Source of the DNA: Candidatus Harrisonbacteria bacterium CG10_big_fil_rev_8_21_14_0_10_40_38
GTDB taxonomy: Bacteria > Patescibacteriota > Minisyncoccia > UBA6257 > 1-14-0-10-40-38
Length of the DNA: 64,000 bases
Reading direction: 5' to 3'
Assembly: GCA_002773535.1 (NCBI GenBank)
Contig: PFAZ01000001.1
Location: forward strand, 89,273 to 153,272
In this document: piece after piece, positions 14,380 to 64,000 of the stretch
Position numbering within the stretch: position 1 is the stretch's first letter
Layout: every line of letters begins with the position of its first letter
The notes under the pieces: generated by a model
Database searches by the model: none
Seen by the model: only the letters and a program-made list of their open reading frames with translations
Told to the model about the DNA's origin: nothing
Translations under genes and position numbers: made by a program

Positions 14380-14530
14380 TTTTTTTACTAATTTTTCATA
14401 TTTCATGTCGCATTCCACATGCCACATTCCACATTTTACATTCACTATGTCGCATTCCACATGCCACAACCTTAATTAGAAATTAGATTAATTAGTAATT
14501 TTCTCATTCCCCATAATTCATATTTTCGCG
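14380..14530. repeat. intergenic repeat block: two copies of ATGTCGCATTCCACATGCCACA core plus ATTAG hexamer array
   Basis: Core motif at 14404-14425 and 14446-14467; aattagaaattagattaattagtaatt follows; related copies at 215-245 and 59960-60290. Confidence 0.7.
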
Positions 14531-14571: not shown

Positions 14572-15675
14572 ATGTCAGTAGCCATTTATCGCAAATACAG
14601 ACCAAAAAGCTTTGGAGACCTATTAGGTCAGGAACATATAATAGAAATCCTCAAAAACGCCGCCATAAGAGACCGTATTGCGCACGGCTATCTTTTTTAT
14701 GGCACGAGAGGTAGTGGTAAAACGACAGTGGCGAGAATTTTGGCAAAAGTGGCAAATTGCGAAACTCGCGCAAAAGACAAAAAATTTCACGACAAAGGAG
14801 AACCATGTAACACCTGTCCAAGATGTATCGAGCTAGACGAAGGTCGCGCGCTAGATGTTGTCGAGATTGATGCCGCCTCAAACAGGGGCATAGACGAAAT
14901 CAGGTCACTAAAAGAAAGTGTACGACTCTCCCCCACAGTAGCAAAGCACAAAATTTATATAATCGACGAAACTCATCAGCTCACCAAAGAGGCATTTAAC
15001 GCTCTTTTAAAAACTCTTGAAGAACCACCTGCTCACGCCATTTTTATTCTGGCTACTACAGAATTTGAAAAAGTCCCCGCCACTATCAGTTCTCGCACCC
15101 AAAGATTTCATTTTAAAAAACTCCCAATAGAATCAATCATCAAAAAACTTGAGACTATTTCCAAAACCGAAAAAATGGATATAGAAAAAGATGCCATTGA
15201 GCTTATTGCGGCAGTTGCAGATGGCTCATTTCGTGATGCAGAAACTCTTATTGACCAGATAACATCACTCGAAGACAAAGTCACGGTTGAAAGCGTGGAG
15301 AAGATTATCGGTAAAGTCGGTTTTACAAGAATAGCCGAGCTCGCAGGATTTATTCTCGAAAACGATCTTAACAAATCTCTTGAATACATTGCCACTTTTC
15401 AAAATAACGGATTAAACATTGTAGACCTTGCAAAAGAGCTTATTCACTATCTCCGCCGCGCGCTTGCCCTCAAAGCAGACCCAAAACTCGAAGAAATATT
15501 CAAAAATGACCTCACAGAACGTGAGCGCGAAACCTTAAAATCCCACAGCGAAAAAATAAACCCCGAAAAACACATATCGCTTATACGAGACCTTATTCGC
15601 AGCTATTCGGATATGCGATATTCCCCTTTCGCGAGTATTCCTCTCGAAGTAACCCTCATTGAACATTTGAAGTAA
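14572..15675 (+). CDS. dnaX: DNA polymerase III subunit gamma/tau (short form)
   Basis: Walker A GTRGSGKTT, zinc-module CxxC...C, clamp-loader AAA+ N-terminal domain; 367 aa. Confidence 0.85.
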   Translation: MSVAIYRKYRPKSFGDLLGQEHIIEILKNAAIRDRIAHGYLFYGTRGSGKTTVARILAKVANCETRAKDKKFHDKGEPCNTCPRCIELDEGRALDVVEIDAASNRGIDEIRSLKESVRLSPTVAKHKIYIIDETHQLTKEAFNALLKTLEEPPAHAIFILATTEFEKVPATISSRTQRFHFKKLPIESIIKKLETISKTEKMDIEKDAIELIAAVADGSFRDAETLIDQITSLEDKVTVESVEKIIGKVGFTRIAELAGFILENDLNKSLEYIATFQNNGLNIVDLAKELIHYLRRALALKADPKLEEIFKNDLTERERETLKSHSEKINPEKHISLIRDLIRSYSDMRYSPFASIPLEVTLIEHLK

Positions 15676-19834: not shown

Positions 19835-20221
19835 ATGTTCAAAATAAAAAAAGAGACAGTCGTTGTAACAACCTCCGCCCTCCTTACAGTTGTTGCCGCG
19901 ATGCATTTATTGAGAATTATTTTTAACGTCGACATTAAGATAAACGGCACAAGTCTCATGATCTGGCCGAGCTACGTTGCTGTTTTAGCTCTAGGATTCC
20001 TCGCAGTTCTAAATCTTGAATCAATAGAAAGAAGGAATAAGACCACTTGGATAAAGTTTATTATGTGGCTCTTTGTACTCGACGCCATCGGGGTCTTCTA
20101 TTCATGGATGAGCAATCTTAGCTACTGGGGCATTTCAAGGAATGGATTCGGAGTAATCACACTTTTTGATGTTTTAATTGTCATCATTCTCGCGACAAGC
20201 ATAAGAAAAGCCAATCGATAA
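19835..20221 (+). CDS. membrane protein (hypothetical)
   Basis: 128 aa, 4 predicted TM helices; followed by terminator. Confidence 0.45.
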   Translation: MFKIKKETVVVTTSALLTVVAAMHLLRIIFNVDIKINGTSLMIWPSYVAVLALGFLAVLNLESIERRNKTTWIKFIMWLFVLDAIGVFYSWMSNLSYWGISRNGFGVITLFDVLIVIILATSIRKANR

Positions 20222-20240
20222 ACAATAACATATCAAAAAA

Positions 20241-20278
20241 CACCTCATATGCCATTAAATATATGAGGTGTTTTTTTA
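20241..20278 (+). terminator. rho-independent terminator
   Basis: acacctcatat...atatgaggtg hairpin followed by T7. Confidence 0.7.
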
Positions 20279-20311
20279 GGAAAAAACCAATAAAGTAAAG
20301 GAAAATTAACT

Positions 20312-20340
20312 ATTGACATAAACAGTATATTATGATAATA
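20312..20340 (+). promoter_or_regulatory. strong sigma70 promoter with extended -10 (TTGACA-N17-TGaTAATAT)
   Basis: Perfect -35, 17-nt spacer, TG-extended -10. Confidence 0.65.
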
Positions 20341-20344
20341 TATC

Positions 20345-20812
20345 CAAGCTCAATAAGAGCACAAATTTGTAAAGTACTTTTTGGAGGAGAATCATGCGCA
20401 AGTCCTGCCCCGTCCCCTTTTGCGACTCTCACACCGATTCGCGACTGAAGCGCCGGCTCCGTGGAAACCACGGAGAACGTCACCGTCGTCGCATCAATCG
20501 CGAGCTGGAAAAATTCATCTCCCTCGCGACGGCCAGGTCGACAGTGCCAGAGGGGGCGAGACGAGTCGCCCCCACACCTCCACCCGCAAGGACGAGAGTC
20601 GCTCGTCTCTTCTCGGGGTTGCGCAGGGTCTTCGCCCTGAGCTAGCCACTACCCCACCAAACCGCCCTACACACTGCAAAGTGTGTAGGGCATTCCATTT
20701 TAAAAAGACTTCAAAATCAGTTATAATCAAAAACAGCGAGATAGATTTTGGGTACTAAACAACCCTCCCCAAGGGGGATAAAGCGCCCATAAATCTATCT
20801 CGGTTTTTTTTG
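20345..20812 (+). ncRNA. candidate novel structured RNA (GC-rich, ~470 nt); alternative reading: 83-aa Arg-rich ORF 20394-20645
   Basis: ~60% GC core in a ~38% GC genome; all three overlapping frames on both strands are open (expected for GC-rich RNA); many hairpins (ccgtgg-aaa-ccacgg, gggggcga...tcgccccc, gccctacacac...gtgtgtagggc); ends at a compound terminator 20737-20811. GGAGGA plus ATG at 20394 keeps a basic-protein reading possible. Confidence 0.4.
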
Positions 20813-20838
20813 ACAAGAATTAAGAAACAAGCTATCAT
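20810..20838 (+). promoter_or_regulatory. sigma70-like promoter (TTGACA-N17-TATCAT)
   Basis: Motif and spacing. Confidence 0.5.
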
Positions 20839-20844
20839 ATCAAA

Positions 20845-21167
20845 TTGTTAGATCTTTGAAAAAAACCGAGGCAGTTGTTTTTAGGTCGTGGATGAATGGC
20901 CTCTTTCACCACCAAGTACTAACTGCCTCGGTTTCCAATGAATCCATAGCACTCTTTCTGTGCTGCCCGTTGTCCTCCCCTCCTCGTAGCGGCGCAGGAA
21001 AAGTGTCTATGGAGTCATACAAGGTCGACAAATAGTTTTCTACGCAGTCCTTAGCACACTCCTCATCTCAAAAGAAGTGCGCAAGAAGATCCTCCGGCGC
21101 AGAATAACCAATTGTTGACCCAGTCCCTCGGTGAATCTCGCCCTTCACCGAGGGGCTCTTTTTTTTC
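20845..21167 (+). ncRNA. candidate structured RNA (~320 nt) ending at terminator 21125-21167
   Basis: Long-range 12-bp stem accgaggcagtt (20865-20876) / aactgcctcggt (20921-20932); GC-rich middle; canonical terminator ccctcggtgaa...ttcaccgagggg plus T9; no credible ORF. Confidence 0.35.
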
Positions 21168-21529
21168 GACAAATATTTGTAAAGATGCTTTAATAAAAAA
21201 AATAGGCTCTGGGCTGGGTTTCGAGCAGCGAATATGGACGATATTCGCCTGCTATAAGAAGCCCGGTCTGGAGCCACCTATCCTTAGACATATTTCCATA
21301 ACAACCAAACCACGGATTTTCACCCCGTGTTTTTTTTGACAAATTATTTCTCTCCCCTTATCAATGCAGAAAAGTTAGGATCATCTGCATATTTTAGAGC
21401 CCTGTCATTTATAAAAAATCTTTCTCTAGCTTCTTCAAAAGTAATGTCCGTATCAATTAGTCCAAGATCATACGCCAACTTATCTGAATCAGCTTAAACC
21501 TCTGCGAATATATAGCTTCAATATAAATA

Positions 21530-21760
21530 TTGTTTTGTAAACATTTCGATGGTATATTGCAAATAGCAAAAATTGACTCTGGGCTGGTCCGTGGTGAACC
21601 TCTAAGTAGAGATTCGTAGCCGTGATCTACCAGCCCAGAGTCACTACATAGTTCCTTTCCATAGCTCGGGGGCAATCAAATGTGTTTATCCAGTGAGGGG
21701 TCTGGCAGAACCCGAAAATAGCTAAATACATATGACCTGTCCCCGGGTCATTCTTTTTTT
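21530..21760 (+). ncRNA. candidate small RNA with 14-bp perfect inverted repeat (promoter TTGTTT-N17-TATATT; terminator 21732-21760)
   Basis: gactctgggctggt (21575-21588) pairs with accagcccagagtc (21629-21642); the arm motif ctctgggctgg recurs at 21205-21217; hairpin plus T8 terminator. Confidence 0.35.
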
Positions 21761-21814
21761 AGAAAACAAAAACGTGACCTACAAAGGCCACGTTTTTTGC
21801 TTATCTACACAACA

Positions 21815-22018
21815 CTAGTTTTCTGGGGTTTCTTCCCACAACTTATCAAACATCGCATTCCATTCGGTCATACTTTCCGGTGTAGCTTTTTCTACCATAT
21901 CTTTATGAGCTTCTTTTGCGTGTTCACTCATTTTTCCGCGTACTTCATCAACTGTTTCGCCGGAAGCTTCAAATGTGCATTCGCCTCCTCCAACTTGAGA
22001 ACATTTAATTGTTTTCAT
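21815..22018 (-). CDS. DUF1059-like small protein
   Basis: 67 aa with MKxxxCxxxGGxCxFEAxGET...HAKEAH pattern; bidirectional terminator hairpins at 21773-21798. Confidence 0.5.
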   Translation of the reverse strand: MKTIKCSQVGGGECTFEASGETVDEVRGKMSEHAKEAHKDMVEKATPESMTEWNAMFDKLWEETPEN

Positions 22019-22159
22019 TTTTATAAATTAGGTTAATCTTTCGACCGGGCAAACATAGCACGAATCAAGTAGATAGTCTATAAAGATATTTTTTTATTGA
22101 CATCGCAAAATTTTCTTTTATTCTTACAACCAGATCATATCCCAAGAAGGAGGTGTGTT

Positions 22160-22816
22160 TTGACAACAGGTCATTTCAGTAGCTGTATTACTCACGATGA
22201 CTGCTGGTGCGAAGCCAAGCGATATTGGCTCTTACTTGCTATAGCTACAGTCATTTTGTTTACCGAAGTGGTTGGAGGTGTTCTGTCGCATAGTCTTGCA
22301 CTTCTTGCAGATGCCGGGCACGTATTAGCAGACACAGGGGCAACCGTTGTCGCAATCATAGTAGCCTATAAGGTAAAAAAGAGTCCGCATGTCGAGTCAA
22401 AAACACGAAAAATCGGCGGTTATATAAACGCCATATTCCTCGGAGTCATTGGGATTTGGATTTTCATTGAAGCAATTGAGCGCTTCTTTAATCCTCATCC
22501 AATTGTAAGCATGACTATGATAGTCGTAGCAATTCTCGGCACCATCGGTAACTATATCCAGCATGCGATAATGGAGTCCGCAAATGCAGAACACGTCACG
22601 CACGAATCCATGAAACTCCATATCCTCTCCGATCTTCTGCAAAGTATTGGAGTTGTACTCGGTGGAGTGATTATATGGGCAACAGGGTGGGATCCACTCG
22701 ACCCAATAATCTCAGTGGTTATCGCAATTTTAATGGCGCGCTGGTCTTGGAGTCTTTTGCTCAAACTGCGATCCGGCAAATATGACAATGGCAGCCACTG
22801 CCACCATCACCACTAA
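22160..22816 (+). CDS. cation diffusion facilitator (Co/Zn/Cd efflux, CzcD-like)
   Basis: CDF TM signature HSLALLADAGHVLAD, C-terminal His-rich tail (HCHHHH); RBS AGGAGG then TTG start at 22160 (the tracked ORF begins at 22097). Confidence 0.75.
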   Translation: MTTGHFSSCITHDDCWCEAKRYWLLLAIATVILFTEVVGGVLSHSLALLADAGHVLADTGATVVAIIVAYKVKKSPHVESKTRKIGGYINAIFLGVIGIWIFIEAIERFFNPHPIVSMTMIVVAILGTIGNYIQHAIMESANAEHVTHESMKLHILSDLLQSIGVVLGGVIIWATGWDPLDPIISVVIAILMARWSWSLLLKLRSGKYDNGSHCHHHH

Positions 22817-38403: not shown

Positions 38404-38532
38404 AACTAAATTATAACCAAATTAAAATCATAAAAATAACTAACTCTACACAGAAAGCGCATCTCGCCCACACTCACCTATCACTCACTTTTTTTATCAC
38501 CTTTTTCACCAACCATTATCCATTTCCACTCA

Positions 38533-38568
38533 CCTAACAATTTTTGACGATCGTCAAAAATTGTTAGG
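38533..38568. promoter_or_regulatory. 36-bp perfect palindrome CCTAACAATTTTTGACGATCGTCAAAAATTGTTAGG upstream of uppP
   Basis: Perfect dyad symmetry; near-identical copy at 39980-40015. Confidence 0.7.
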
Positions 38569-38679
38569 TAAATTATTAAGTAAGCAGTAAAAGATTAAAA
38601 ATCTAAAGTTGGCAAAATAAAAAAAGAATCGCCCCCTAAATCGGGGGCGTCCTAAAAGCGAGTAAGTGATTTTTCCGAA

Positions 38680-38877
38680 TCAGTGGGTGGTTCCTCGAGA
38701 CCGAGCATCCTCTCTACACTTTTTGCGAAGAAATCTGAAAAAATCTTTCTCCTCGCTTTCGTCAAGATCAACAGCTATTCGATCAGCTTCGTCTATCAAA
38801 GCCTCCGCATCAATATCACTTCTCTTCATAAAAGCATCGATTTCCGCACAGGCATCTTCTAGTCTATTGCTTGACAT
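38680..38877 (-). CDS. small acidic hypothetical protein
   Basis: 65 aa; terminator hairpin 38625-38665 after stop; shares C..ID..D pattern with upstream small ORF. Confidence 0.4.
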   Translation of the reverse strand: MSSNRLEDACAEIDAFMKRSDIDAEALIDEADRIAVDLDESEEKDFFRFLRKKCREDARSRGTTH

Positions 38878-38908
38878 ATCAAGCTCCTTTCGGCTTTGAG
38901 GAAAATCA

Positions 38909-39115
38909 CTATTTTCCTTTTGGCTTCGGAAATTTTTCTGACATCAGTTTTTTAAAGGTTTGGAAAACAATTTCTTCATATTTCCCAAACTTTTTCATAA
39001 TTGCATCAATACCATCAATACATGAATCGCGAGTAGCACCCACTTTTTCAAACATTGCGTGAACCGCGTGAATCGCTCTTTTCTTCATAGAATCACCCAT
39101 CAAAAACCTCCTCAT
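38909..39115 (-). CDS. small hypothetical protein
   Basis: 68 aa; operonic with flanking genes. Confidence 0.4.
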   Translation of the reverse strand: MRRFLMGDSMKKRAIHAVHAMFEKVGATRDSCIDGIDAIMKKFGKYEEIVFQTFKKLMSEKFPKPKGK

Positions 39116-39220
39116 CTCCTTTCATTGAGTGCTATCCGTTTCTCTTTCATCCTTTTCTCGAGAGACGGAATGTAGTAGGAAAGAATCTCAAGTGGAGTGG
39201 CAACGAGCCACTGCCACAAC

Positions 39221-47818: not shown

Positions 47819-49285
47819 CTAAAACGCTACAGGCCAGACCACCCTCGCATCACCCTGCTTATCAATGATGAAAAGGCTATCCACTCCGCTACCGACACGC
47901 TGTTCGGGAAATTCTACCCTGCCGTCTTCATTTGTCACACCATCGACAACAAAAATCTCCTCTTGAGCCCCAGGACGTACGACATACATCCGAAGCTGGA
48001 GGTTTTCGATCGACGGATGCGACTGCACAGCGACGGAATAAAACGAGTCTTTTTGATCGATTTCCAGTTCAAGCCCGTCGATCCCCGAAGCAGGAATTCC
48101 AAATATCGGCAGATATCCTCGAATATATGCGTTTTCGATGTCACCGCCGACAAAATCTCTCACCGCGCGAACTCCCTGCGCTATTCCATATCCATCACTG
48201 GAAAAAGATCCGTACAACTCACCACTCCTATCGGAGAGCAAAAAGTGGTTACATGTCTTATCCTTCAGACTCGACACGAAATCACGCATTTCATCCCACA
48301 CAGTCCAAAATTCCTGCGAACCTTTTGTAGCCTGACCGATAGGCAGAGACAATGAAAGCACTTCGCTTGCCCATGCGAGAGAAAGCGCGCTCATCATATA
48401 TCCGCCAATCCAGGCAGAATTAAGTACACCACCGGGCGTGTCCCGCACGTATTCACGAACAGTGTCCATCATAAACATCGTCGCGCTGTACACAACGAAA
48501 TAAGAATCAATGACATATTCCTGAAAAGGGTTGTGGCCCAAATTGGAATAAAATGCATCAAGTCCTTCAATTGTAGGCGGGTCTCTGCCCAGTACCAATG
48601 CTAATGAATCGTTCATTGCAAGAAACGCACGATCCACTTGAGTGAGATTGAAACTCCAAAAACTTGGAGACCAACCATTGTACCTCCCAAACCGAGTCGG
48701 TGAACCAGACATCGCCGCAATGATCACACCATCCAAGTACTGAGCTATCTGAACACCCTCAGCCAATCGGACAAGAGTGTTTTCCGAATGGAGATCGCGA
48801 TCAGTCGCGATTTCCAACTGGCTCGTATCCGAAAGTGCTTCGAGTGCTGCAAGCTGCAAACCGGTCACTGCGGCAAACGACGGAAATCCATCCCCCCACT
48901 CATTGATCGTTTCGCCTTCAGTTATACGAAGCGTCATCCGTTCAGAAAGACTTTCTCTGTCACCGTCATGTCGAACAACTCTAAGAAAAGCATCTCCAGG
49001 AAGAAACCCGTAGTCCAGAGTCAATCTACCCAAAGGTGCGATTGCCTCCAGTCGATCACGCCGGGAGTCCACTCTCGTGGGCACCCGCACCGAGATGTCG
49101 CCGAAGTCGTACTCAACTTCGTATTCTCGGTTCGGATCGAGGTTCTCAACCTTGATCTGAATCAGAGAGAAAGGCCCTGCCTCTCCTGTAATGAGTTGTG
49201 ACTTCAGAGTAGCTTCAGGAGAGCTTGATCTCCCGCTCTTGCATCCAGAAGTCAAAACAACCAAAAATATCAAGAAAAATCTCAC
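47819..49285 (-). CDS. lipoprotein, hypothetical, GC-rich
   Basis: Lipobox LTSGC; GC visibly ~50% against a ~38% background; terminator after stop at 47772-47800. Confidence 0.5.
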   Translation of the reverse strand: MRFFLIFLVVLTSGCKSGRSSSPEATLKSQLITGEAGPFSLIQIKVENLDPNREYEVEYDFGDISVRVPTRVDSRRDRLEAIAPLGRLTLDYGFLPGDAFLRVVRHDGDRESLSERMTLRITEGETINEWGDGFPSFAAVTGLQLAALEALSDTSQLEIATDRDLHSENTLVRLAEGVQIAQYLDGVIIAAMSGSPTRFGRYNGWSPSFWSFNLTQVDRAFLAMNDSLALVLGRDPPTIEGLDAFYSNLGHNPFQEYVIDSYFVVYSATMFMMDTVREYVRDTPGGVLNSAWIGGYMMSALSLAWASEVLSLSLPIGQATKGSQEFWTVWDEMRDFVSSLKDKTCNHFLLSDRSGELYGSFSSDGYGIAQGVRAVRDFVGGDIENAYIRGYLPIFGIPASGIDGLELEIDQKDSFYSVAVQSHPSIENLQLRMYVVRPGAQEEIFVVDGVTNEDGRVEFPEQRVGSGVDSLFIIDKQGDARVVWPVAF

Positions 49286-59900: not shown

Positions 59901-59939
59901 AATAGCAATTTAAAATATATTGTCAATACCTGTTTTTTT

Positions 59940-60285
59940 TCATTAACTAGATCAATTAGTCGTTACATGTCGCATTTAACATTCCACAATCTTCAGTATT
60001 TAGTTTTCAGTTTCAAGTTTTCGGTTTTTAGTTGTAAGTCTTAAGTCTTAAGTTTTCGTCTTCGGTCATTAGTATTTGGAATTTATTTGTAATTTGGGAT
60101 TTGGAATTTAATTAGGTCAATTAGATTAATTATCATGCCGAAGGCAGATCCTCCTCCGGAGGAGCAATTAGAAATTAGTCGTTAGTCTTCAGTTATTAGT
60201 TTTTAGTTGCTAGTTGCTAGTCTTTAGTTGTAAGTTGTAAGTCACATTGTTTTACATATAACATTTCACATGCCACAATATTGTT
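59940..60285. repeat. intergenic repeat block: AGT-heptad arrays, ATGTCGCATT...CCACA core copies, ATTAG array, 14-bp palindrome CTCCTCCGGAGGAG
   Basis: Runs of 7-nt units tagtcgt/tagtctt/cagttat/tagtttt/tagttgc...; core motif at 59964-59990 and 60255-60285. Confidence 0.7.
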
Positions 60286-63632: not shown

Positions 63633-64000
63633 CGATTTTTCTCCTCAAAAAAAGCGAGACATACACCTTCACTCTATGTGTGAATCTTCCTCCCAATATT
63701 TATCCTTTAAAGAGTTAAGGAGCCAAAGAACAATACCCATCAAGACCACTAAGACTGAACCTACAACAAACTCCATAAGACACCTCCAAAAAAACCAATC
63801 AACAATATAATGAATAGAAATATATAAAAAGTAAAGTAAATAACAAAAAACCGCTGGAAATTCCAGACGGTTCTTTGTTGTCGGTAGCCTATAAGCCGGA
63901 TTCTGTTTTACCTCGCCGAAGATCTAGCGAAGGCGGATTTTATCTCGCCCGCAAAACTTGGATAGATAAACGATAGCCATCTATCTAGCCCTGCAATTAC

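Follow-up and report, generated by a model that had tools for sequence, protein, structure and literature searches.

A strongly promoted, GC-rich hairpin element in a Candidatus Harrisonbacteria genome: a candidate structured RNA carrying an 83-codon open frame

Results

A compact predicted transcription unit at the head of a long non-coding gap

The element described here occupies positions 20313-20810 of a 64,000-nt stretch (hereafter the window; 40.3% GC) of contig PFAZ01000001.1, part of a metagenome-assembled genome of an uncultivated Candidatus Harrisonbacteria bacterium (Patescibacteria, or Candidate Phyla Radiation, CPR) from Crystal Geyser. It stands at the start of the window's longest non-coding gap (20222-21814; 1593 nt), and the genes flanking it carry the locus tags COU07_00620, COU07_00625 and COU07_00630. 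The gap is bounded by an orphan gene for a 128-aa membrane protein, which has its own A-run/T-run terminator (20235-20276), and by a DUF1059 gene on the - strand, while a tRNA-Gln lies 2 kb from the unit. The Prokaryotic Genome Annotation Pipeline (PGAP) places nothing at the unit, its locus tags passing from COU07_00625 to COU07_00630. Neither an integrase nor a transposase was found near it by protein-family scans or among the neighbourhood genes, and no phage genes were found there.

In an earlier reading of the bare letters (the original prediction), this segment was proposed to be either a novel large non-coding RNA (ncRNA) or a protamine-like, Arg-rich protein of 83 residues. Its architecture comprises a consensus extended -10 promoter, a terminal hairpin followed by U8 and a separate terminator for the gene upstream, and from these motifs we infer that 20313-20810 is a self-contained, strongly promoted transcription unit. 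Its features are listed below; SD stands for Shine-Dalgarno sequence, GC3 for the GC content of third codon positions and pI for isoelectric point.

20313-20318 (+): -35 hexamer TTGACA (promoter motif)
20333-20341 (+): extended -10 element TGaTAATAT, with TG at 20333-20334 and TAATAT at 20336-20341, after a 17-nt spacer (promoter motif)
20348-20393 (+): AU-rich 5' leader of 46 nt, 35% GC (sequence, folding)
20348-20360 (+): 5'-terminal stem-loop GCUC-AAUAA-GAGC (pair probability 0.99)
20383-20389 (+): SD-like GGAGGAG, its GGAGG lying 6 nt upstream of the AUG at 20394 (sequence)
20394-20645 (+): open frame of 83 codons from ATG to TAG (ORF83); 18 Arg, pI 12.0, GC3 0.70
20442-20446 and 20488-20492 (+): GCGAC and GUCGC (the latter the tail of GUCGUCGC), flanking hairpin A (sequence, folding)
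20457-20475 (+): hairpin A, perfect 8-bp stem CTCCGTGG/CCACGGAG, reading CUCCGUGG-AAA-CCACGGAG (sequence, folding)
20500-20527 (+): hairpin B, GCGAG/CUCGC closing an 18-nt A/U-rich loop (pair probability at least 0.93)
20552-20573 (+): hairpin C, perfect 8-bp stem GGGGGCGA/TCGCCCCC, reading GGGGGCGA-GACGAG-UCGCCCCC (sequence, folding)
20577-20582 (+): anti-SD-like CCUCCA, predicted partner of the 5' SD (ensemble pairing)
20591-20607 (+): hairpin D, GACGAG-AGUCG-CUCGUC (sequence, folding)
20624-20639 (+): hairpin E, CAGGGU-CUUC-GCCCUG (sequence, folding)
20646-20663 (+): C-rich stretch CCACUACCCCACCAAACC between stop codon and 3' hairpin, predicted to be single-stranded (folding)
20664-20691 (+): 12-bp GC-rich hairpin GCCCTACACACT/AGTGTGTAGGGC with a GCAA (GNRA) loop, then a weak U-tract AUUCCAUUUU (sequence, folding)
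20729-20810 (no strand assigned): 82-nt compound hairpin with A5/T8 flanks (folding z = -6.4)

The promoter scores 10 of 12 plus the TG, which places it among the approximately six best sigma-70-like matches of the window, and its spacing predicts a transcription start at about 20346-20349. The leader also contains the palindrome ACAAAUUUGU followed by AAAG, a motif common to the promoter of the unit at 21170-21184. At the other end, the 12-bp hairpin could be a leaky terminator or a 3' stabiliser. The 82-nt hairpin, which starts 37 nt past it and whose T-run overlaps the -35 hexamer of the next unit, is a strong intrinsic terminator and the more convincing of the two; it is probably bidirectional, and it is the likely 3' end of the unit.

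The body is a GC island rich in hairpins

Within the unit, the 298 nt from 20394 to 20691 have a GC content of 62.8%. The peak value over 150 nt (0.68) lies about 5 standard deviations (sd) above the window mean (0.40; sd 0.056), and this is the strongest GC island in the 64 kb.

Perfect 8-bp stems with loops of 3-8 nt were counted inside ORF83. At least two such hairpins occur in 0.6% of the dinucleotide shuffles of this frame, and in 0.3% of 328 real coding segments of 252 nt taken from metagenomic loci of 58-70% GC. Folded alone, ORF83 gives z = -3.3 against dinucleotide, synonymous and codon-order shuffles, the gene segments of the window averaging -0.35 (sd 1.06; minimum -3.06). Its minimum free energy (MFE) is lower than that of all 300 permutations of its own synonymous codons tried, so the structure is not a by-product of the peptide and its codon usage. 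Thus, both the GC island and the hairpin content exceed chance, the latter going beyond what composition-matched sequences give, and the hairpin excess together with the synonymous-permutation result imply selection on the RNA. The GCGAC/GUCGC pairing motif recurs, moreover, in different reading frames. The C-rich stretch CCACUACCCCACCAAACC has an unpaired probability of 0.77-1.00 from 20648 onwards, 20646-20647 being predicted paired. The z of the whole unit (-6.6) was down-weighted as evidence, because the terminator and the mixture of an AU-rich leader with a GC-rich body inflate it.

Most of the physical description in the original prediction holds. Its five hairpins are all there, the last with a stem of 12 bp rather than 11, and its compound terminator corresponds to the 12-bp hairpin with a poor U-tract plus the 82-nt A5/T8 hairpin. 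The GC-rich segment is real but shorter than the ~350 nt at ~60% GC that had been claimed. The promoter has the motif described (TTGACA-17-TGnTAATAT), but it is not the single best of the window, since two others, at 59926(-) and 20810(+), score 11 of 12.

ORF83 has a canonical start and an anomalous composition

The open frame runs to a TAG at 20643. Three of the six frames are open over 20394-20645, and at the GC content of the body each frame has a chance of about 10% of being free of stops; an open frame of 83 codons is therefore not in itself significant here.

Treated as a gene, ORF83 would have a GC content 8 sd above that of 55 window genes, and its GC3 is 6.4 sd above theirs (maximum 0.53). 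The same peptide back-translated with native codon usage would have a GC content of 0.50 and a GC3 of 0.36. Its Arg codons comprise 13 CGN and 5 AGR, versus 58% AGR in native genes. Taken as those of a protein gene, the GC3 and the Arg codon bias require either very recent transfer or extra selection on the RNA. Recent transfer would explain the codon composition; counter to it stand the native-looking promoter, leader and terminators, the coincidence of the compositional boundaries with transcript features and the lack of a donor homolog.

Codon periodicity, as well as host-like codon usage, is absent from ORF83: the chi-square of codon position by base is 5.0 (P = 0.54), a value as low being found in none of 128 native segments and in 0.6% of the 328 GC-rich gene segments (84 codons each). 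The small window genes tested are mostly periodic at P <= 0.034, including the orphan 128-aa neighbour, with two unnamed hypothetical ORFs not significant. AlphaFold 2 (AF2) was rejected as a coding test, since an alternative frame scores the same as ORF83 (mean confidence, pLDDT, of 66 versus 63). Within the AF2 model of ORF83, residues 26-49 form a predicted helix with a pLDDT of about 90. The peptide contains a mini-repeat, RRV.A / TRVA / RRVFA, in which different Arg codons are used, and peptides read from its sequence are FISLATAR, STVPEGAR, VAPTPPPAR and SCPVPFCDSHTDSR.

ORF83 does have a translation-initiation signal upstream, and this is uncommon in the window. Most window genes lack an SD, and many have a TATAAT-like box 6-8 nt upstream of their ATG, a position that suggests leaderless mRNAs. 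GGAGG at a spacing of 6-8 nt precedes only about 6-8 of 52 window gene starts, those of this SD-led minority being at 49285, 22160, 17082, 15751, 32840 and 23863. The ribosome-binding site (RBS), together with the fit of its frame to the GC-rich body, makes the strongest case for a protein product or, failing that, for the binding of ribosomes. Ensemble folding predicts an SD that is nearly always base-paired, its main partner being CCUCCA at 20577-20582 (p = 0.62; a shifted register adds 0.26); this occlusion is a prediction only, and co-transcriptional loading of ribosomes could bypass it.

As regards the coding claims of the original prediction, the GGAGGA at 20383-20388, 5 nt before the ATG, and the overlapping frames open across the element are as described, whereas the Arg content is 21.7% (18 of 83 residues), not ~25%.

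No relatives beyond identical copies

Searches with the RNA and with the peptide gave the same outcome. At the gathering threshold, Rfam 15 recognised only the tRNA-Gln in the whole window. Permissive Rfam scans of 20000-22200 and 20340-20815 returned sub-threshold chance matches on the terminator hairpin, the best with 23.8 bits versus the 63 required, and ARAGORN found no tmRNA. A word-indexed search of 5.8 billion proteins with ORF83 recovered the query itself, and an exhaustive HMMER search of 1.84 billion representatives recovered the query and one spurious match. The protein P0003 was rejected as a homolog, because nine weak matches to a 71-aa tandem repeat inflate its score. ORF83 has thus neither a protein homolog nor a known domain in these searches, nor a match in Pfam, PHROGs, NCBIfam or PDB; its best Pfam hit, Adeno_VII, is sub-threshold (E = 0.052; 14.5 bits versus a cut-off of 21.2). 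The other frames of the body matched no protein family or homolog.

At the DNA level, six other metagenomic contigs carry the locus. They are 100% identical over the unit, with a single-nucleotide polymorphism at 21411, outside it. Metagenomes in which the locus occurs include JGI 3300004209 and 3300025850 and the run SRR6240789. Non-identical homologs were found in none of the protein, viral, phage, plasmid and metagenome collections. Back-translated ORF83 peptides found no match in viral or metagenome contigs, nor did blastn and tblastn against phages and plasmids or the exact hairpin sequences in viral contigs. The window holds no other copy of the unit, and there is no paralogy between the unit and its neighbours.

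The absence of ORF83 from protein databases is weak evidence, because the frame is called as a gene on only one of the four identical contigs that cover it and PGAP annotated nothing. The upstream 128-aa gene, in turn, is clearly coding yet equally orphan: no homologs were found, and a scan of genome contigs gave one irrelevant weak match. Further out, the nearest relatives of a YgjP-like neighbour are at most 69% identical, and neither of the two loci fetched for it is syntenic. In a relative that is 79% identical at the DNA level in the DUF1059 gene (ENA ERZ28563803 scaffold_518627, 1-1117), that gene stands between a tRNA-Gln and a membrane-protein gene other than the one found here, which indicates that the region around the unit has been rearranged between related lineages. 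For the stretch 19835-21814, which contains the 128-aa gene and the hairpin units, no counterpart was found elsewhere. Our search of the literature on structured RNAs and leaderless translation in CPR bacteria found nothing relevant.

Neighbouring units and other features of the window

Downstream of the unit, further promoter-hairpin-terminator units follow without credible coding capacity and with folding z values of -5 to -9.

20810-21166 (+): promoter TTGACA-17-TATCAT, scoring 11 of 12; four long hairpins, folding z = -9.1; apical loop UCCUCCCCUCCUC (~20971-20985), rich in C and U; terminator hairpin 21122-21157, followed by T8
21203-21338 (+): near-perfect hairpin of 71 nt (z = -6.8)
21574-21643 (+): hairpin of ~70 nt, paralogous to that of 21203-21338 (z = -5.3), with CUCUGGGCUGG in common

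The first of these has neither an Rfam match nor a credible ORF, and looks like a candidate anti-SD-type small RNA (sRNA). The other two have the arm CTCTGGGCTGG in common, which occurs 3 times versus 0.4 expected (alignment z = 5.3); a metagenome scan with it gave 54 chance matches in unrelated GC-rich or plant-like DNA. The units form a head-to-tail array of small transcription units, in which the T-run of a terminator leads directly into the next -35 hexamer (TTTTTTTTGACAA) at 20803-20816, 21159-21172 and 21330-21343, a sequence found nowhere else in the window. In addition, the motif ACAAAT(AT)TTGTAAAG is common to the leader of our unit (20360-20374) and the promoter spacer of the 21203 unit (21170-21184), ATTTGTAAAG occurring 3 times in the window versus 0.4 expected; this motif is a possible common operator. 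On the opposite strand, 21344-21478 (-) holds a 44-aa ORF (MAYDLGLIDTDITFEEARERFF...) with codon periodicity (P = 0.02) and a gene call in Joint Genome Institute (JGI) assemblies but no family match; this could be a genuine small gene, or what is left of a gene, within the "non-coding" gap.

Elsewhere in the window, two tandem promoter-hairpin-terminator units of the same style lie at 59926-59668 (-). The first has the best promoter match of the window (TTGACA-16-TATTAT with TG) and the second TTGACA-16-TAATAT with TG; their predicted RNAs of ~100 and ~90 nt (z = -4.2 and -5.5) have no Rfam match, and a small SD-led membrane ORF follows them at ~59636. At the end of the window, 63876-64000 (-) is the 3'-terminal part of a class A bacterial RNase P RNA (ACAGAAUCCGGCUUAUAGG...; RF00010, E = 1.2e-5, model positions 292-367), which was missed at the gathering threshold because the window end truncates it. 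A direct repeat, ATGTCGCATTCCACATGCCACA, stands twice at 14400-14470, upstream of a dnaX-like gene at 14572, and the related motifs CACATGCCACA and ATGTCGCAT occupy intergenic positions at ~59960-59990 and ~60262-60285, upstream of 60286; these repeats may represent a shared operator. Finally, an SD-led ORF of 63 aa (GAGGAGG-N6-ATG) lies at 39100 (-), in the 817-nt gap 38404-39220.

Discussion

Both alternatives of the original prediction, an RNA or a protein, survive this analysis, and known families leave the element unexplained; on balance, its intrinsic features speak for RNA, on account of the hairpin excess, the GC content of synonymous sites and the absence of codon periodicity. We favour, with a probability of about 0.5, the reading that the functional product of 20313-20810 is primarily an RNA, namely a GC-rich, hairpin-rich regulatory RNA of ~345-465 nt. 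Such an RNA would begin with a 5' stem-loop and an AU-rich leader, continue with a 300-nt body of five hairpins and a GNRA-capped 3' hairpin, and end at the U8 terminator, and two C-rich stretches, CCUCCA at 20577-20582 and CCACUACCCCACCAAACC at 20646-20663, would be left single-stranded. Its SD and AUG would probably bind ribosomes, and the 83-codon frame may be translated, the peptide then being under little constraint at the protein level; that the RNA is translated as well is a possibility we hold tentatively, and that it acts without being translated we consider somewhat less probable still. In the latter case the SD might only stabilise the 5' end of the RNA. By likeness to RNAs of the RsaE/RoxS/RNAIII type, the C-rich, anti-SD-like segments may pair with G-rich ribosome-binding sites, either in cis, where they would occlude the unit's own SD, or in trans, on the SD-dependent minority of mRNAs in a mostly SD-less genome.

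Several observations weigh against an RNA product, and they fall into three groups. (i) ORF83 starts as the few genuine SD-led genes of this genome do. The spacing in its GGAGG-N6-ATG equals that at the verified SD-led starts 49285, 22160, 17082 and 15751, and, because the window contains 48 GGAGG-plus-start-codon sites in 128 kb (both strands), the estimated chance of such an RBS in a 50-nt leader is only ~0.2-1.6%. (ii) The frame and the GC-rich body coincide: the rise in GC starts at the AUG at 20394, and ORF83 spans the whole body and ends 18 nt upstream of the 3' hairpin. The body (63% GC) also exceeds the known or putative RNAs of the window, which range from 0.42 to 0.58 (tRNA 0.57; RNase P fragment 0.46; neighbouring hairpin units 0.42-0.58), so that structure alone may not explain its composition. 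(iii) The structural and periodicity measures have limits. The halves of ORF83 fold near their shuffles (z = -1.2 and -1.6), its absolute MFE is ordinary (34% of GC-matched real genes are as stable), folding of the unit gave no long-range architecture with a confident prediction, and there is no covariation support because there are no homologs. Likewise, back-translations of the peptide with GC-rich codons are equally flat in 18% of cases; the periodicity test consequently has low power, and its result is to be read as "not a typical protein", not as "not a protein".

These same observations make a conventional monocistronic gene, encoding a nucleic-acid-binding protein that would be small, largely disordered and very basic (pI 12; 22% Arg), a serious rival and the best of the alternatives, short of an even chance. 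Such a gene would consist of the promoter, a 46-nt 5' untranslated region with the SD, the 83 codons and the terminator. The hairpins would then be mRNA stabilisers, autoregulatory sites for the Arg-rich segment, or incidental. Besides the canonical SD and AUG and the way in which ORF83 fills the space from RBS to 3' hairpin, such a gene would account for the mini-repeat with its differing Arg codons and for the predicted helix; its orphan status is uninformative, given the equally orphan coding neighbour, and a frame that is so often uncalled could have homologs missing from protein databases. Against it stand the deviant GC3 and Arg codons, the rarity of two perfect 8-bp hairpins in real GC-rich gene segments, the missing codon periodicity, the lack of a homolog among 15 billion proteins, a control frame that AF2 models equally well, and the predicted occlusion of the SD. 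ORF83 resembles small Arg-rich nucleic-acid-binding proteins, such as protamines, adenovirus core protein VII, the chlamydial proteins Hc1 and Hc2, and the arginine-rich motif (ARM) peptides of the lambda N/Rev type, in Arg content and pI, in being predicted mostly disordered with one helix and in the weak, sub-threshold Adeno_VII match, but it lacks significant similarity to any protein. Unlike real Arg-rich genes, which show strong codon periodicity, its frame shows none, and two more frames are open to the same extent. The high Arg content stems for the most part from the reading of CpG-rich sequence in one of these three frames. Under the preferred RNA reading, the Arg-rich "protein" of the original prediction would not be, translated or not, an evolved protamine-like protein, and the intrinsic evidence does not support it as an evolved gene.

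How, then, are the two sets of evidence to be reconciled? In favour of translation, the RBS counts for roughly two to three orders of magnitude; composition, hairpins and periodicity together count about as heavily against a conventional gene. The best fit to both is a structured RNA that is under selection as an RNA and also carries an RBS. Hairpin RNA units seem, furthermore, to be characteristic of this genome, and since compact, strongly promoted hairpin RNAs recur in it, the prior for an RNA product is higher.

An improbable alternative is that the segment is non-functional, decaying foreign GC-rich DNA or a palindrome-rich mobile element in a variable region near the tRNA-Gln, with a promoter, SD and terminator that would have arisen by chance or would survive as remnants. 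Its composition unlike that of the host, the lack of a counterpart for 19835-21814, the different neighbours of the DUF1059 gene in the related lineage and the tRNA-Gln 2 kb away would all suit such an origin. CPR genomes are compact, though, and 1.6 kb of junk with three exact T-run/TTGACA junctions is unlikely to be accidental. The GC boundaries match transcript features rather than any repeat or target-site duplication; the window contains no second copy, and searches of viral, plasmid, phage and metagenome collections gave no match; no integrase or transposase lies nearby; and the sequence is identical in six independently assembled metagenome contigs.

Far less probable still is an antiterminator like phage lambda N, whose ARM (residues 16-41, SRLKRRLRGNHGERHRRRINRELEKF) would bind an RNA hairpin and cause read-through of the downstream terminators: the peptide combines small size, basic character and mostly disordered structure with an ARM-like stretch towards its N-terminus, and at least four hairpin-plus-U-run terminators lie within 1.1 kb downstream, but no boxB-type hairpin (5-bp stem, GNRA-like pentaloop) was found, the loops being AAA, GACGAG, AGUCG, CUUC and GCAA on 6-12-bp stems, each downstream unit has a consensus promoter that makes read-through unneeded, there is no phage context, the ARM resemblance is a low-complexity likeness, and the evidence against the coding frame applies equally. 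Two further classes were rejected. A type I toxin-antitoxin system does not suit a hydrophilic, Arg-rich peptide, and no convincing antisense promoter lies over ORF83. In an integron cassette or attC array, core sites RYYYAAC ... GTTRRRY stand at the hairpin bases and an intI gene lies nearby; here the hairpin bases are A-runs and T-runs (AAAAAC...GTTTTT), terminator-like, and there is no integrase in the neighbourhood.

The preferred reading, a primarily RNA product, can be set beside several known systems. Those closest in layout, at the level of sequence motifs only, are the dual-function sRNAs RNAIII of Staphylococcus aureus (hld), SR1 of Bacillus subtilis (SR1P) and SgrS of Escherichia coli (SgrT). 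As they do, the unit has its own strong promoter and an intrinsic terminator, extends over several hundred nucleotides with multiple stable hairpins, contains C-rich unpaired segments able (here by prediction) to pair with SD regions, and holds an SD-led small ORF inside structured RNA. Unlike them, it shows no sequence or covariance-model similarity to these RNAs, its ORF83 spans almost the whole RNA (83 codons versus their 26-43), and it is known from sequence alone, in a single population and without homologs.

A second comparison is with the large GC-rich structured ncRNAs OLE, HEARO, raiA, ROOL and GOLLD. GC-rich ncRNAs have been found, by the GC/length approach of the Breaker laboratory, as GC-rich intergenic regions in AT-rich genomes, and our unit is likewise a sharp GC island (63% versus 40%) in unannotated intergenic DNA with strong predicted structure. 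In contrast to those families, which are defined by covariation across many genomes, it is not conserved at all and has no match to such families in Rfam 15, and it carries a canonical RBS and an open frame. Finally, the perfect SD-like sequence near the predicted 5' end recalls the STAB-SD of Bacillus thuringiensis cryIIIA, in that it could bind 30S subunits and protect a stable, highly expressed RNA from 5' decay without productive translation; unlike in STAB-SD, an AUG follows the SD of our unit at ideal spacing, and a stabilising role would be an inferred one.

Taken together with its neighbours, the unit may be more than a single RNA. In a speculative extension, which we regard as doubtful but worth stating, it would come first in a tandem "sRNA island" of at least four to five consecutive, strongly promoted, hairpin-rich non-coding RNAs in 1.6 kb of a minimal CPR genome, the T-run of each terminator serving also as the upstream edge of the next promoter. 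The GC-rich lead RNA would represent a new class of large RNAs, dual-function or anti-SD, and would control the small set of SD-dependent genes in an organism with mostly leaderless or SD-less mRNAs. No described family includes the unit; should it prove real, it adds a new orphan to the bacterial sRNAs or dual-function RNAs, or else to the genes for small proteins.

To our knowledge, regulatory RNAs and small proteins have hardly been explored in the Candidate Phyla Radiation, and CPR genomes are so compact that 1.6 kb without genes stands out. As a single-genome orphan, seen so far in one population, the unit is for now of limited general importance, and its interest comes mainly from the unexplored state of riboregulation in these bacteria and from the unusual tandem array that it heads. 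Should the product be a protein, the 83 Arg-rich residues would form a nucleic-acid-binding protein specific to this lineage, encoded with a codon usage wholly unlike that of its host. Should it be a structured RNA with high expression, this unit and those next to it would count among the first riboregulator candidates of CPR bacteria, and would hint at RNA-based control over the minority of genes that depend on an SD.

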